Positions 2,381 to 7,014 of a stretch of 8,501 bases of DNA are shown one piece after another. Within the stretch, counting starts at the first letter, position 1. The number at the start of each line of letters is the position of its first letter. The stretch is from Candidatus Electronema aureum (GTDB taxonomy: Bacteria; Desulfobacterota; Desulfobulbia; Desulfobulbales; Desulfobulbaceae): contig NQJD01000064.1 of assembly GCA_004284765.1 (NCBI GenBank), positions 1-8,501 of the forward strand. The letters are read 5' to 3'. Both the position numbers and the translations under genes were made by a program. Below the pieces are notes generated by a model that saw only the letters and a list, made by a program, of their open reading frames with translations, did no database searches and had not been told where the DNA came from.

Positions 2381-2390
2381 TGCACGAGCA

Positions 2391-2416
2391 GGGGCAGGTA
2401 ATGGCCTGCCCTTTTA
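2391..2416 (+). terminator. Rho-independent terminator of serC
   Basis: GGGCAGG (2392-2398) pairs with CCTGCCC (2405-2411) around a 6-nt loop. The stem is followed by TTTT (2412-2415) and lies 11 nt after the serC stop. Confidence 0.6.
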
Positions 2417-2447
2417 GCGTTAAGAAATATTTATAATGGAGCGTGAG

Positions 2448-3551
2448 ATGCTACAAAGACTTTATGTTCATAACTTCAGATGTCTGGAGAATTTTGAACT
2501 GACCGCAAAGGAATTGCCATCTTTTCTTTTAATTGGAAAAAACGGCGTAGGAAAATCTACTGTTTCTTATGCACTGGAGATGTTTCAATCTGTCGGCAGA
2601 GGAATAAACAGAATTAAGGAACTTGTTAAAGAGAGTGATTTTGCTCGTGGAAGGTCTGATGTTCCTATCAGATTTGAGATGGAAGTGCTGCTTGACAACA
2701 AGCTATACAAATATGAACTTGCTTTAGAATTGCCGGAAAAATTTAAGGAACTTCGAGTTGTCGAGGAGCAACTATCAGTCGCAGGATCCCCGGTTTATTC
2801 CCGGAAAGAAGCTCAAGTAACTCTTCATTCTCAAAATCGTGCCGCGCAGTTTTTAGTTGACTGGCATCTTGTTGCTCTACCGGTCATTCAGGAACAATCG
2901 GAGACTGATCCGCTTCGTATTTTCAAAACTTGGCTGGCCCGTATGATTATTTTGTCGCCAATTCCAAGCCTGATGACTGGTGAGTCCAGCGGCGAAACAC
3001 TGGACCCGAAGCGGGACGGCTCTAACTTTGGCGAGTGGGTTTCCGGGCTGTTCAGTCGTTATCCAGCAGCCTATATGCAGGTTGACAAGTATCTTCGCAA
3101 CGTCATGCCTGATATTCAAGATTTTATGAATGAACCTGTCGGCAGGGACTCGAAAAGTATGATTGTTCGATTTGAAGCCAATAATGCAACTCTGGGTGTT
3201 GACTTCAAGGAATTGTCTGACGGGGAGAAATGCTTTTTTCTTTGCGCTGCGGTCTTGGCTGCCAACAAATCGTATGGTCCGCTATTCTGCTTTTGGGATG
3301 AACCAGATAGCTATCTCGCTCTTTCTGAGGTTAGACATTTTGTAACAGAATTGAGACGTTCATTTCATGGTATGAGCCAAATATTAATGACATCCCATAA
3401 CTCTGAGGCGATACAAAGCTTTTCAAACGAAAACACCTTTGTGCTCGACAGGAAAAGCCATCTTGAACCAACTTTGATTAGACGACTCAGCGATCTGAAT
3501 ATCGAAGGAGATATTATTGAATCCCTTATCATAGGCGACATAAAAATATAA
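2448..3551 (+). CDS. ABC/SMC-head-type (AAA_15/AAA_21-like, OLD/RecF-like) ATPase, about 367 aa; candidate defence-system ATPase
   Basis: The N-terminus LQRLYVHNFRCLENFEL is followed by Walker A GKNGVGKST (2535-2561). The ABC signature LSDGEK is at 3213-3230 and Walker B LFCFWDEPD at 3282-3308. An H-loop-like MTSH motif is present (His codon 3396-3398). GGAG (2439-2442) precedes the ATG at 2448; the ORF-track ATG at 2436 is an alternative start. The gene is AT-rich (22/60 G+C in 2461-2520). Confidence 0.85.
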   Translation: MLQRLYVHNFRCLENFELTAKELPSFLLIGKNGVGKSTVSYALEMFQSVGRGINRIKELVKESDFARGRSDVPIRFEMEVLLDNKLYKYELALELPEKFKELRVVEEQLSVAGSPVYSRKEAQVTLHSQNRAAQFLVDWHLVALPVIQEQSETDPLRIFKTWLARMIILSPIPSLMTGESSGETLDPKRDGSNFGEWVSGLFSRYPAAYMQVDKYLRNVMPDIQDFMNEPVGRDSKSMIVRFEANNATLGVDFKELSDGEKCFFLCAAVLAANKSYGPLFCFWDEPDSYLALSEVRHFVTELRRSFHGMSQILMTSHNSEAIQSFSNENTFVLDRKSHLEPTLIRRLSDLNIEGDIIESLIIGDIKI

Positions 3552-3553
3552 GC

Positions 3554-4042
3554 ATGGATAAACACAACCCACAACTTCTCATTCTGCCTGAAGATAAAGC
3601 TAACTGTCAGATTGCAAATGGATTTTTTCTAAATCTGAATATCAAATCTCGCTCTTTTCGGGTACTGCCGATTGCTGGTGGATGGACAAAAGTCTTGAAA
3701 AAGTTCAAGACTGATCACCTTGACAAGATGAGGAGGTGTCCAGACAGGAAGATGGTGTTTCTGATTGATTTTGATGAAAATAAAGAGCGATTAGATCGTA
3801 TCAAAAAAGAGATACCTCAAGATTTGATTGACAGCGTTTTTGTTCTCGGTGTCTGGTCTGAACCGGAGAAGCTAAAGAAAAAAACAGGGAAAGATTTTGA
3901 AACGATCGGAAAGGCACTTGCGGAAGGATGCCCAATCAGCAGAAACGAATTATGGTCAGATGAGCTGCTTCAGCATAACGAAACTGAATTAGACCGTATG
4001 ATTCCACTTGTCAAATCCTTTCTGTTTGAAAAAACAGAATGA
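3554..4042 (+). CDS. 162-aa hypothetical protein, possible minimal Toprim-like (RloB/DUF4276/DUF4435-style) partner of the upstream ATPase
   Basis: Its ATG lies 2 nt after the ATPase stop (TAAGCATG), which suggests translational coupling. It shares the AT-rich composition (24/60 G+C in 3721-3780). The pattern is: hydrophobic strand plus acidic residues LLILPED (E13, 3590-3592), then AGGWTKV, then hydrophobic strand plus DxD VFLIDFDE (D72/D74, 3767-3775). The coding call is fairly secure. The fold and function are inference only. Confidence 0.65.
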   Translation: MDKHNPQLLILPEDKANCQIANGFFLNLNIKSRSFRVLPIAGGWTKVLKKFKTDHLDKMRRCPDRKMVFLIDFDENKERLDRIKKEIPQDLIDSVFVLGVWSEPEKLKKKTGKDFETIGKALAEGCPISRNELWSDELLQHNETELDRMIPLVKSFLFEKTE

Positions 4043-4177
4043 TGGGTTATACCCAAGGAGACAGTGTTATATAGCAAAAAGATAAGCTGCACTTTTAATA
4101 AAATTGCTCGCAGCTTCGGTCTCATAGCGCGTGAAAAGACGCACGCAGCCCTTCATCTTTCTTCCATCAAAGGCAGC

Positions 4178-5650
4178 ATGGAACAGAGCGAACAACGCAT
4201 GAAATCTTCTGAAATCCGTTATCGGCGGCTTTTTGAAGCGGCAAGAGACGGCATCCTGATCCTTGATGCCGAGACAGGGAAGATTGCAGATGTGAATCCC
4301 TTTTTAGTGGAAATGCTCGGCTATTCCTATGCAGATTTCTTGGGGAAAAATCTTTGGGAGTTGGGAGCGTTCAAAGATGTTGCGGCATCAAAGGCCGCAT
4401 TCTCGGAACTGAAGCAGAAGAAATATGTCCGCTACAACGATCTGCCGCTGAAGACTAAAGACGGTCGCCTGATTGCGGTGGAGTTTGTCAGCAATGTCTA
4501 TCAGGCTGGTCAGGAGGAAGTGATTCAGTGCAACATCCGCGACATCACGGAACGGAAAGAGATTGAAGCAGCCTTGCTGAATGCCAGCGCGGAGCTGGAG
4601 CATCGCGTCGAAGAGCGCACGGCGGAATTGCAGACAGCTCTAGCGGCAATCAATGTGCTGCAGGAGCAGGTTGAGGCTGAGAATCTCTTTTTCCGCAGAG
4701 AGCTGCGGCAGAAGTATCAATTCACCCGGATTATCGGCCAAGACAGCGGCCTCAGAGATGTCCTCCGCATGGCCGAGCAAGTCGCGCCCGGCAACACCAC
4801 GGTGCTTATCCTTGGCGAGACTGGCACCGGCAAAGAATTGATTGCGGCGGCCATTCACGACATGAGTCCGCGCCGGGAACATCCGCTGATCACAGTCAAC
4901 TGCGCCGCGCTGCCCGGCAATCTGATCGAAAGCGAACTGTTCGGGCGCGAGAAAGGTGCCTACACCGGGGCGGACACCAAGCAGGCAGGCCGCTTTGAAA
5001 TCGCTGACGGCTCCACCCTCTGCTTGGATGAAATCGGCGAACTGCCGCTTGAACTCCAGGCAAAACTGCTCCGAGTCATTCAGCATAACGAGTTTGAGCG
5101 GCTGGGATCATCCCGCACTGTCAAAGTGGATGTGCGAATCGTGGCCACCACCAACCGCAACCTTGATGAAGAGGTCAGCCAAGGCAGGTTTCGTCAAGAT
5201 CTCTACTATCGGCTCAACGTCTTCCCGCTCACTGTGCCGCCTCTGCGGCAGCGGAAAGAAGACATTCCGATGATGGTTCATGCCTTTGCCGAGCGGTATT
5301 CCAAAAAGCTCGGCAAAGCGATCACCTCTGTCCGCAAGGAGACGATCAGGGCTTTGCAGGACTATCCTTGGCCCGGCAACATCCGAGAGCTGGAAGGTGT
5401 CATTGAGCGGGCAGTGATTCTCTGCGTCGGCCCAGTGCTGTATCTCACCGACGAGCTGAAGATTCTCGCCCCGCTTGCCTCGCCGTCTGACAAGCAGACC
5501 TTAGAAGAGACAGAACGGAATCACATCATCAAGATCCTCTTTACAACCAGATGGCGGATTGAAGGCAAGGACGGCGCAGCCCTGATTCTTGGCATCAATG
5601 CCAGCACCTTGCGCGCACGAATGCACAAGCTCGGAATACTTCGCCCCTAA
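4178..5650 (+). CDS. Sigma-54-dependent transcriptional activator (bEBP): PAS sensor, coiled-coil linker, AAA+ sigma-54-interaction domain and Fis-type HTH; no receiver domain
   Basis: The PAS S-box runs from RYRRLFEAARDGILILD to IRDITERK. Walker A GETGTGKE is at 4814-4837. A GAFTGA-type loop reads GAYTGA (4955-4972). Walker B is LCLDEIGEL, and the sensor II / Arg finger motif is PWPGNIRELE. The C-terminal HTH reads AALILGINASTLRARMHKLGI. The start is ambiguous: the GTG at 4064 (ORF track) would add 38 residues with no domain. The ATG at 4178 gives MEQSEQRMKSSEIRYRR just before the PAS domain. Confidence 0.9.
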   Translation: MEQSEQRMKSSEIRYRRLFEAARDGILILDAETGKIADVNPFLVEMLGYSYADFLGKNLWELGAFKDVAASKAAFSELKQKKYVRYNDLPLKTKDGRLIAVEFVSNVYQAGQEEVIQCNIRDITERKEIEAALLNASAELEHRVEERTAELQTALAAINVLQEQVEAENLFFRRELRQKYQFTRIIGQDSGLRDVLRMAEQVAPGNTTVLILGETGTGKELIAAAIHDMSPRREHPLITVNCAALPGNLIESELFGREKGAYTGADTKQAGRFEIADGSTLCLDEIGELPLELQAKLLRVIQHNEFERLGSSRTVKVDVRIVATTNRNLDEEVSQGRFRQDLYYRLNVFPLTVPPLRQRKEDIPMMVHAFAERYSKKLGKAITSVRKETIRALQDYPWPGNIRELEGVIERAVILCVGPVLYLTDELKILAPLASPSDKQTLEETERNHIIKILFTTRWRIEGKDGAALILGINASTLRARMHKLGILRP

Positions 5651-5913: not shown

Positions 5914-5934
5914 AGCAATGAAATGCATTGCTGA
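5914..5934 (+). promoter_or_regulatory. Conserved 5'-leader hairpin, copy 1
   Basis: CAGCAATG (5914-5921) pairs with CATTGCTG (5927-5934) around a 5-nt loop. The hairpin ends 27 nt upstream of the GTG start. A counterpart sits at the equivalent place in copy 2. Confidence 0.3.
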
Positions 5935-5960
5935 TCGCATTCACCAAGGGATCAACTGCC

Positions 5961-6383
5961 GTGAAAAAGAATACTCTCATCTCGTCGCCTGTCACCAGTG
6001 CTGCAAAGAAAGCAGCCGGACGCGCCGTCCTGTTTGTCGCATCGTTTCTTGTGCTTTCGCTGATTGCCTGCAATGGCCCTGCCGGGCCGGCGGGAGAGAC
6101 CGGTAAAACAGGCAATACTGGTAACACAGGAGACACAGGTTATACAGGAGCGCAAGGAAACCAAGGCAACCAAGGCAACACTGGAAATCACGGCAAAGCC
6201 GGAGCTGATGGTGCGCAAGGCAACCAAGGTAACACCGGGGATACCGGAGACACAGGAAACACTGGCAACACTGGAAATACCGGCAAAGCCGGAGCTGACG
6301 GTGCGCAAGGCAACCAAGGTAACACCGGAGACACCGGCAAAAAAGGCTCAGGCGCTACAATAATTATCGAAAAAAAAGAATAA
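5961..6383 (+). CDS. Small lipoprotein with a collagen-like (Gly-X-Y)31 mature region, 140 aa precursor
   Basis: The GTG at 5961 is preceded by AAGGGA. The signal peptide [36 protein letters not shown] has the lipobox L-I-A-C (Cys codon 6069-6071). It is followed by an uninterrupted [30 protein letters not shown]...GDTGKKGSG run and a 9-residue tail, ATIIIEKKE. The ORF-track start at 5928 is a TTG that adds 11 residues. Confidence 0.8.
6075..6353 (+). repeat. 9-bp-periodic coding repeat (31 Gly-X-Y triplets) with an internal 90-bp duplication
   Basis: GGN-NNN-NNN periodicity is visible throughout. The segments at about 6174-6246 and about 6264-6336 are near-identical, both reading GGCAACACTGGAAAT..CGGCAAAGCCGGAGCTGA.GGTGCGCAAGGCAACCAAGGTAACACCGG. 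Confidence 0.9.
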
Positions 6384-6506
6384 GAAGAATAACAGTCAAG
6401 TTTATGAACTGCGGACGTTTGAGTGGTCAGCAGACATGTTGGAAGGGAAGTGTTTGGCAGTTCGTGGAGGTTCCTCTGAATTCCGGGCTGGTTCAAAAAA
6501 ATATCT

Positions 6507-6526
6507 CAGCAATGGACTCATTGCCG
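6507..6526 (+). promoter_or_regulatory. Conserved 5'-leader hairpin, copy 2
   Basis: CAGCAATG (6507-6514) pairs with CATTGCCG (6519-6526), 7 of 8 pairs, around a 4-nt loop. Its position relative to the GTG start at 6554 matches copy 1. Confidence 0.25.
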
Positions 6527-6553
6527 ATCGCATTCACTAAGGGAGCAACTGCC

Positions 6554-7014
6554 GTGAAAAAGAATACTCTCACCTCGTCGCCTGTCACCAGCACTGCAAA
6601 GAAAGCAGCCGGACACGCCGCCCTGTTTATGGGCTTGTGCCTTATGCTTTCACTGACTGCCTGCACTGGCCCTCGCGCGGCCCTCGTGGAAATACTGGCA
6701 ATACCGGAAATACTGGCAACACGGGGGTTTCTGGAGACACCGGCTACACAGGTGCAACTGGGGCCACTGGTGCGCAAGGAAACCAAGGCAATACAGGAGA
6801 TACCGGAGACACTGGTTATACAGGTGCCACCGGAGCGCAGGGAAACACCGGCAACACCGGGGATACTGGGGCTGATGGTGCGCAAGGAAACCAAGGCAAC
6901 ACTGGAGATACCGGAGACACTGGTTATACAGGTGCCACCGGAGCCACAGGAAGGACTGGAAATACTGGCAACAGAGGCCCAGGTGCTACTGTGATTGTTC
7001 AACCAGAATTATGA
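6554..7014 (+). pseudogene. Paralogous collagen-like lipoprotein gene, frameshifted as sequenced (signal peptide and Gly-X-Y region lie in different frames)
   Basis: The GTG at 6554 gives [36 protein letters not shown] (lipobox L-T-A-C, Cys codon 6662-6664), then T-G-P-R. The (Gly-X-Y)34 run, [10 protein letters not shown]...GNRGPG, and the tail ATVIVQPEL are in the other frame (6679-7014). Removing the GC at 6677-6678 from CGCGCG (6674-6679) gives a continuous ...C-T-GPR-GPR-GNT... register. Confidence 0.6.
6679..6984 (+). repeat. 9-bp-periodic coding repeat (34 Gly-X-Y triplets) with an internal 108-bp duplication
   Basis: The segments 6769-6836 and 6877-6944 are 65/68 identical. Both read GGTGCGCAAGGAAACCAAGGCAA....GGAGATACCGGAGACACTGGTTATACAGGTGCCACCGGAGC. 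Confidence 0.9.

Follow-up and report, generated by a model that had tools for sequence, protein, structure and literature searches.

The question raised by this stretch of DNA, 8,501 nucleotides from the cable bacterium Candidatus Electronema aureum (assembly GCA_004284765.1, contig NQJD01000064.1; hereafter called the window), is what function is served by two adjacent genes, here called gene A and gene B, which lie between serC upstream and a PAS/sigma-54 activator gene downstream, all on the same strand. An initial annotation had described them as an AT-rich pair located between the serC terminator and a sigma-54 regulator gene and coding for an ABC ATPase together with a Toprim-like protein, a candidate compact anti-phage system; both open reading frames were present where it had placed them. 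By analogy with known systems, the pair is here read, with a slight preference, as an ATPase-controlled Toprim-like nuclease module acting in biological conflict. The two genes and their junction are as follows:

2448..3551, plus strand: gene A, encoding an ABC ATPase (AAA_21/AAA_15/SMC_N type) of 367 amino acids; a second possible start, an ATG in the same frame, is located at 2436.
3549..3556, plus strand: the A-B junction TAAGCATG, consisting of the stop codon of A, a spacer of 2 nucleotides and the start codon of B, and reading TAA-GC-ATG.
3554..4042, plus strand: gene B, encoding 162 amino acids, without a Pfam, PADLOC, NCBIfam or PHROG model; a probable small Toprim-like metal-dependent nuclease.

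The junction was read as initially annotated, with B starting 2 nucleotides past the stop codon of A, and it implies translational coupling. In 80 loci fetched from genomes with relatives of B, a homologue of A was directly upstream of B in 79, so the co-occurrence across genomes on which the initial annotation had proposed a check was found. Across these 79 loci the junction was an ATGA overlap in 62 and a 2-nucleotide spacer in 15. Pairwise distances of A and B were correlated (Mantel r = 0.74, with 0 of 2000 permutations as high), gene B evolving approximately 1.65 times faster than A. Nucleotide conservation between loci ended approximately 60-90 bp upstream of A and approximately 30 bp downstream of B, and the comparison of loci revealed neither a third conserved gene nor mobile-element ends at the borders of the cassette. 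A and B are an obligate, co-translated and co-evolving unit. Decayed copies occurred both ways, some having lost B with A intact and others having A truncated or absent with B intact, including four chromosomal loci with B in which gene A was truncated or missing.

Gene A is annotated by NCBI as a 'putative ATPase' of 367 amino acids. The ATG at 2448 appears to be a better start than that at 2436, because GGAG is located 6 nucleotides upstream, the NCBI annotation has 367 amino acids and the homologues align from there. Residues are numbered from 2448, so that K36 corresponds to K40 in the numbering of the initial annotation, which counted from 2436. Motif conservation was determined in 72 homologues drawn from related loci:

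2438..2441, plus strand: GGAG, a Shine-Dalgarno-like motif 6 nucleotides 5' of the ATG at 2448.
2535..2561, plus strand: Walker A motif (P-loop) GKNGVGKST, G30-T38, read from the translation, invariant in the alignment of gene A and present in 72 of 72 homologues.
3213..3230, plus strand: ABC signature LSDGEK, L256-K261, present in 70 of 72 homologues.
3291..3308, plus strand: Walker B motif and D-loop FWDEPD, F282-D287, present in 68 of 72 homologues.
3396..3398, plus strand: H-loop histidine H317 (in TSHN), invariant in the alignment of gene A, with SHN in 60 of 72 homologues.

The full set of ABC motifs reported earlier was thus recovered, Walker A, Q-loop, signature, Walker B/D-loop and H-loop following one another in the order of ABC ATPases, and A is predicted to be catalytically competent as an ATPase. 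The Pfam matches of A were to AAA_21 (1.7e-18, 68.2 bits, cut-off 27), which covers residues 31-324 of the 371-amino-acid open reading frame starting at 2436, to SMC_N (2.1e-11, 44.1 bits, cut-off 40) and to AAA_15 (2.2e-11, 44.5 bits, cut-off 32.1), and the Pfam scan gave no additional or fused effector domain. With PADLOC, matches were obtained to AbiLi (3.7e-23), HEC-01A (2.7e-21; HEC-01 being 'Hma-embedded candidate 01'), AriA (2.4e-17), mad3 (4e-15), PDC-M07A (2e-14) and also PtuA; the scores on HEC-01A and AbiLi were only 74-80 bits, whereas a true HEC-01A scores 505. No NCBIfam equivalog was near its cut-off (MAD3, NF047739, 30.8 versus 420 bits; RecF, TIGR00611, 23.9 versus 172 bits).

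The AlphaFold model of A had a predicted local distance difference test score (pLDDT) of 61.8, a low confidence attributed to the fact that the available homologues are all approximately 75-80% identical, and was usable for coarse fold matching only. It matched Septu/retron PtuA, Rad50, OLD and GajA at E values of 1e-7 to 1e-5, and it shows an insert (residues 74-136) built entirely of beta-strands. Gene A belongs to the AAA_15/AAA_21/SMC_N clade of ABC ATPases, and its initial description as an ATPase of the OLD/RecF/AAA_21 type without an effector domain agrees with the Pfam match to AAA_21 and with the matches of OLD, PtuA and AriA type.

Protein B has a mass of 18.7 kDa, and protein A of 42 kDa. 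No significant match to B was found in Pfam, PADLOC, NCBIfam, PHROGs, PDB sequences or a PDB profile search. Its relatives form 113 clusters at 90% identity, none of which bears a Pfam domain, and a profile search with B retrieved 891 cluster representatives at 50% identity, nearly all of 155-170 amino acids. Conserved positions were identified from alignments of 78 homologues and of 140 more diverse sequences:

3590..3595, plus strand: E13-D14, directly past strand 1 at the position of the Toprim glutamate; invariant in the 78 and at least 90% conserved in the 140 sequences.
3677..3685, plus strand: G42-G43-W44, the loop preceding helix 2; G43 is invariant in both alignments.
3767..3775, plus strand: D72-F-D74 (DxD), terminating strand 3; both aspartates are invariant in the two alignments.
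3857..3868, plus strand: S102-E103-P104-E105, forming a second cluster of acidic residues past strand 4; in the 78 sequences P104 and E105 do not vary and S102 is at least 90% conserved.

The residues invariant in the 78 homologues are E13, D14, G43, D72, D74 and E105, and likewise P104, while G43, D72 and D74 stay invariant in the 140; DFD was found in 71 of 72 B homologues encoded in the loci. The pattern of acidic strand, GG and DxD that had been noted from the translation is thus real and largely invariant. The AlphaFold (AF2) model of B (pLDDT 92.7, predicted template modelling score 0.88) consists of strand 7-12, a helix, strand 35-37, a helix, strand 65-72, a helix and strand 95-100, followed by a conserved C-terminal helical bundle. 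Strands 1 and 3 bear acidic residues at their C-terminal ends, and others lie shortly past strand 4. In the Toprim layout a Glu follows strand 1 and a DxD follows strand 3 (PMC12065111); in B, E13/D14 follow strand 7-12 and D72-F-D74 ends strand 65-72.

The weak matches of the B model point in the same direction. Those against PDB in Foldseek were led by the retron Eco2 RT-Toprim (E 1.6e-2, probability 0.82, template modelling (TM) score 0.42) and also included DnaG, topoisomerases I and II and OLD (6nk8 and 6p74), and those against viral proteins (BFVD) included several Toprim, primase and topoisomerase proteins, Toprim proteins being enriched among the weak matches in these two collections. 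In lax PADLOC scans of the 78 and 140 members of the B family, the commonest weak matches were RT-Toprim_I-C, HEC-01B and mad4, the best sub-threshold E values, from a minority of members, being 2.5e-4 and 7.3e-4. B is probably a Toprim-like domain: the part of the initial claim that stood is the invariant E/DxD set on a beta-alpha-beta core, and the part not established is the similarity to known Toprim structures, which have a three-layer alpha/beta fold with sheet order 2-1-3-4, and to known Toprim families, with a best Foldseek E value of 1.6e-2 and a negative hhalign comparison with DUF4276. The proposed fold comparison of both proteins had a similarly divided outcome, A matching ATPases of the OLD/GajA type and B having no significant structural match in Foldseek.

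Relatives of B were found in 366 of 185,579 species genomes, mostly of cyanobacteria. The hosts of the cassette include Nostocales, Oscillatoriales, Desulfobacterota, Chloroflexota, Acidobacteriota, Calditrichota and Gammaproteobacteria (for example Thiomargarita and Methylobacter), and gene A is approximately 75% identical across these host phyla. The G+C fraction of the cassette is approximately 0.39-0.41 whereas that of the host flanks spans 0.35-0.60, and this near-constant value of approximately 0.40 points to a cyanobacterial reservoir of the cassette. On plasmids only two cyanobacterial copies were found, one an intact pair on a replicon of 1.2 Mb and one with B truncated. The latter is on the conjugative plasmid pDol_DET69_01 of Dolichospermum sp. 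DET69 (locus L086, 6001-7310), where A is intact (73% identical) and B is truncated after approximately 12 codons (MSINILINVKNS*), a decayed copy of the cassette, which adjoins a VapC toxin-antitoxin pair and genes of group-II-intron-type reverse transcriptase. Strikingly many hosts among the fetched loci are bacteria that are filamentous, multicellular or of giant size (Nostocales, Oscillatoriales, cable bacteria, Thiomargarita, Ardenticatenaceae, Hormoscilla), a tendency, uncorrected for sampling, that could reflect shared mat and sediment habitats or a link with the multicellular lifestyle.

Within the window the A-B pair has a G+C fraction of 0.38-0.49, compared with 0.53-0.58 for serC and 0.54-0.59 for the sigma-54 activator, confirming the AT-rich contrast described initially. 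In a second Ca. Electronema species (GCA_052784925.1) the pair is located between a Na+/H+ antiporter gene and polA (locus L084, 8001-9589), its genes overlap in ATGA, and its A is 75% identical to A of the window, no closer than the copies of Nostoc. Seven metagenomic SpoU-serC loci, the closest relatives found (SerC 72-76% identical), had neither A nor B past serC. The sigma-54 activator gene is also not downstream of serC in these loci, and they are therefore not an exact empty site; of the comparison of the serC-to-activator junction that had been proposed, the absence of the pair beside serC was established and an exact empty junction was not obtained.

The G+C deviation, the identity of A across phyla, the different locus in the other Electronema, the absence beside serC in relatives and the occasional decayed copies are the grounds for concluding that the pair has spread horizontally, as initially suggested, and in this genome it is an acquired, mobile and accessory element. 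The placement of the pair, on the strand shared by serC and the sigma-54 activator gene and in a window where no mobile-element genes flank it, would suit an ordinary housekeeping pair of the cable-bacterial core genome, distinctive by composition only. Such a pair would be expected neither to be missing beside serC in all seven loci nor to be at another locus, with A only 75% identical, in the second Electronema, and the restriction to 366 mostly cyanobacterial genomes and the G+C contrast with both flanks also argue against it; a core-genome origin is considered highly improbable.

A tightly coupled, minimal two-gene unit which moves horizontally without mobility genes of its own and is inserted into many unrelated contexts might instead be a selfish addiction cassette resembling a toxin-antitoxin system, in which B would act as a toxic nuclease that A, in an ATP-dependent way, neutralises as antidote or regulates; the cassette would persist and spread since its loss would be lethal, and would have no primary anti-phage role. 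The Pfam label of AAA_21 ('putative AbiEii toxin, Type IV TA system') and the VapC pair next to the Dolichospermum plasmid copy are in favour of such a cassette. However, the copies have decayed both ways, and if B were a toxin strictly lethal when unneutralised, its persistence where A is not intact would not be expected; plasmids, on which addiction modules are common, also nearly lack the cassette. Toxin-antitoxin and abortive-infection roles are not mutually exclusive, and as an explanation of the pair a purely selfish cassette is regarded as quite unlikely.

Several observations weigh against reading the pair as a nuclease module of biological conflict. For B, none of the Foldseek matches in PDB and BFVD reached E ≤ 1e-3 (TM approximately 0.4), and receiver, vWA and flavodoxin-like folds score alike in the weak tail. 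The hhalign comparison of the B family with the DUF4276 alignment gave a probability of 0.13 and an E value of 0.44, with only the two (L/I)ID strands paired, a weak negative since that alignment is shallow (39 sequences, Neff approximately 2.5), and comparisons with single DUF4276 and PDC-M07B sequences were likewise negative. No Pfam family of Toprim type recurred at E ≤ 10 in the lax scan of the 78 members, the family-wide scans giving scattered noise only, including one DUF3226 match at 0.082. The A family, with approximately 75% identity across phyla, is unusually conserved for a defence sensor.

As regards the role of the pair, searches of 50,697 phage records and 2.9 million viral contigs gave no copy of it, and it is nearly absent from plasmids; a phage- or satellite-borne origin was rejected. 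HEC-01, the closest tested analogue, gave no defence in E. coli (bioRxiv 10.1101/2024.01.29.577857). The 148 nearest flanking open reading frames (one gene on each side, raw counts) are dominated by oxidoreductases, ferredoxins, kinases and glycosyltransferases; only approximately 1 in 10 matched a defence model (Uma2 8, PbeA 3, SduA 2, and pAgo, SngC, BrxH, Csx1 and DpdJ one each), and the rest are mostly housekeeping genes. The anti-phage role proposed in the initial annotation was not established, the immediate neighbours being mostly metabolic or regulatory and the pair missing from phages and viral contigs, and a role in defence is suggested by analogy only.

Some of these observations would be explained if B were not a nuclease, being instead a small Rossmann-like adaptor (of receiver, flavodoxin or RecR type) which binds a metal or ligand and modulates the ATPase, with the pair acting in repair, recombination, end-binding (in a RecF-RecR-like logic) or another non-immune stress function. 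The second-ranked Foldseek match of B is a response-regulator receiver domain, integrin I/vWA domains, flavodoxin and small GTPases score like Toprim, and PDB profile searches of B returned designed Rossmann folds only; the weak N-terminal RecF match of A, its high conservation and the mostly non-defence neighbours may be counted with these. B has four strands, however, compared with five in the receiver domain, the acidic set E13/D14, D72/D74 and E105 is invariant, its positions matching those in the catalytic sites of Toprim domains, and the weak PADLOC matches of B cluster in Toprim families. The score of A on recF is far below its cut-off, and the patchy, G+C-deviant and horizontally transferred distribution, with frequent changes of locus, is atypical of repair genes. 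An adaptor role of this kind is judged unlikely, and the nuclease module is retained as the preferred reading.

In that module, A and B are one horizontally mobile, co-translated unit, in which A belongs to the clade from which OLD, Gabija, Septu, PARIS, AbiL, MADS and HEC-01 draw their sensor or regulator subunit, and the core of B, with Glu/Asp past strand 1, DxD past strand 3 and Glu past strand 4, would form the divalent-metal arrangement of Toprim domains. A may bind B and restrain or license it in an ATP-dependent manner. In response to a cue derived from an invader, B would then cut nucleic acid, its substrate being either tRNA, like that of AriB, or DNA, like that of OLD and GajA, and the cleavage would halt propagation of phage or foreign DNA.

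A further-reaching proposal is that B founds a hitherto unrecognised, minimal (approximately 160 amino acids) family of Toprim-like nucleases and that, with the dedicated 367-amino-acid ATPase, it makes up a new two-gene immune system outside PADLOC, Pfam and NCBIfam, passing horizontally chiefly between filamentous cyanobacteria and further bacteria of large size or multicellular form (such as cable bacteria, Thiomargarita and Ardenticatenaceae) and working in a stripped-down PARIS/OLD mode. This is put forward tentatively, as a possibility somewhat short of even. If B is an active nuclease under the control of A, it would rank with the smallest effectors of this type, and the pair would be a convenient system in which to study how an ABC ATPase licenses a Toprim nuclease, and would enlarge the sparse inventory of defences in cyanobacteria and cable bacteria. 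Should the function not be defence, the strict coupling and the spread across phyla nevertheless single out a mobile function yet to be characterised.

On its upstream side the inserted cassette is bounded by the following element:

2390..2415, plus strand: an intrinsic-terminator-like hairpin of serC with a short T run, identified by reading the sequence and by RNA folding.

The hairpin itself (2390-2413) has a predicted energy of -19.5 kcal/mol (z = -3.69, 0 of 200 shuffles as stable), in support of the terminator assigned initially, and was overlooked by a consensus terminator scan, its T run having only 4 nucleotides. The promoter scan gave no sigma-70-like promoter exceeding the shuffle expectation. 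Upstream of serC, an open reading frame of 190 amino acids (677-1249) lies between it and the SpoU methylase gene. It has an N-terminal hydrophobic segment and a G+C fraction of approximately 0.42, had no match in Pfam, PADLOC, NCBIfam or PHROGs, and is missing from the closest metagenomic relatives. It is a second inserted orphan gene at the serC locus, because SpoU and serC directly adjoin in those relatives.

Downstream, 5928-6383 and 6404-7014 are paralogous lipoprotein-like open reading frames (lipobox LSLIAC and LSLTAC, respectively), each continuing into collagen-like Gly-x-y repeats. The second copy is broken across two reading frames because of an 11-nucleotide tandem duplication at approximately 6668-6690 (GGCCCTCGCGC / GGCCCTCGTGG), which might reflect pseudogenisation, misassembly or a phase-variable switch. 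In the source-genome stretch L001, a gene resembling type IV restriction enzymes (GmrSD_N, DUF262; 443-2041) lies approximately 7 kb and an rve integrase fragment (4733-5131) approximately 4 kb upstream of A, and a DDE transposase gene (14746-15639), the 3' end of which reaches the end of the window, approximately 4 kb downstream of B. These genes suggest that the region is moderately plastic.

The combination of an ABC ATPase with a Toprim protein is an established defence architecture (PMC11464382, PMC10568477, bioRxiv 10.1101/2024.01.29.577857), and the pair was compared with its known members. HEC-01, which consists of an ABC ATPase (HEC-01A) and a DUF4276-type Toprim protein (HEC-01B), is likewise a two-gene, same-strand, overlapping operon, with an AAA_21 ATPase of approximately 370 amino acids lacking a fused effector; the second gene encodes a small protein, likewise stand-alone, in which the motifs are laid out as E...GG...(I/L)D...acidic. 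HEC-01A is the second-best PADLOC match of A, and a few members of the B family match HEC-01B weakly. A pair on the Aeromonas media plasmid pMC64A (locus L088, 2434-4202), located between SNF2 and DNA methyltransferase genes, is a genuine HEC-01, with 505 bits on HEC-01A, 303 bits on HEC-01B and a Pfam match to DUF4276 at 4e-62; PADLOC HEC-01B is taken to equal Pfam DUF4276 because this Aeromonas partner matches both. In contrast to that reference, A scored 74 bits (2.7e-21) on HEC-01A and B of the window had no PADLOC match to HEC-01B at E ≤ 10, sub-threshold matches occurring in 6 of 78 and 8 of 140 family members, and DUF4276 (PF14103) was not matched by any of the 78. B has 162 amino acids compared with approximately 214 in DUF4276 (HEC-01B), and the pair, unlike HEC-01, is not embedded in Hma or methyltransferase loci. 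With A at 74 bits and nothing for B, membership of HEC-01 was rejected.

PARIS, the 'class 4 OLD', resembles the pair in having adjacent, separate genes for an ATPase of the AAA_15/21 clade (AriA) and a Toprim effector (the DUF4435 nuclease AriB), and the distance correlation of A and B parallels the co-evolution of AriA and AriB (PMC11464382). AriA has a mass of approximately 55 kDa and helical insertions which build a hexamer, and AriB of approximately 35 kDa (PMC11464382), whereas A has a beta-rich insert and both proteins are smaller; the AriA match of A is to a generic AAA_21-like model. Neither B nor any of the 78 members matched DUF4435 (PF14491) or AriB, and PARIS is often carried by phages or satellites, in which it differs from the A-B pair. 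Membership of PARIS was rejected, there being no DUF4435 AriB and A being too small and without helical insertions. AbiL is a two-gene system of an ATPase and a small Toprim-type partner (AbiLi and the RloB-like AbiLii; PMC11464382) and provides the best PADLOC match of A (AbiLi, 3.7e-23). The match spans only positions 47-265 of the 326 in the profile, at 80 bits, and none of the 78 B members matched RloB (PF13707) or AbiLii at E ≤ 10 in Pfam or PADLOC, so AbiL was rejected for want of an RloB-like partner. The Mad3/Mad4 part of MADS (AAA ATPase and DUF4276) is matched by A on mad3 (4e-15) and by one or two B members on mad4 (7.3e-4); MADS was rejected in view of the score on NF047739, far under the cut-off, and of the absence of methyltransferase or other MADS genes flanking the pair, with no methyltransferase in the window or in L001.

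A precedent nearly identical in gene sizes and overlapping architecture is the PADLOC candidate PDC-M07, an ATPase of 362 amino acids with a partner of 167; a pair on a Segatella copri plasmid (locus L087, 3001-4592) is PDC-M07. B and PDC-M07B have no detectable similarity (hhalign probability 0.3, no PADLOC matches), and no experimental test of PDC-M07 was found in the literature consulted. A partner as small as B, described initially as much shorter than AriB or typical RloB-like proteins, is therefore not without precedent. OLD and Gabija GajA share with the pair the ATPase fold (6p74, 8sm3) and the logic of an acidic E and DxD, and differ in that each is one fused polypeptide which also carries domains for dimerisation and helical domains; B matched the Toprim regions of OLD (6nk8 and 6p74) non-significantly (E approximately 0.1-0.2, TM approximately 0.4). 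Identity with the housekeeping proteins RecF and RecR was rejected, the RecF match being limited to the N-terminal P-loop and B having no match to RecR, a protein with zinc-finger, HhH and Toprim parts.

The pair is thus not a named system, as had been anticipated, PADLOC having no model for B, and no paper describing the B family was found in the literature searched. Modules of ABC ATPase and Toprim (OLD, Gabija, PARIS, AbiL, MADS, HEC-01) form a major and mechanistically diverse branch of prokaryotic immunity, to which the pair adds a compact, sharply bounded and widely transferred design that current detection tools miss, with a partner wholly without family assignment whose relatives make up approximately 890 clusters at 50% identity. 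Rather than a new kind of system, it is a variant, so far uncatalogued, of the well-known design combining ABC ATPase and Toprim.

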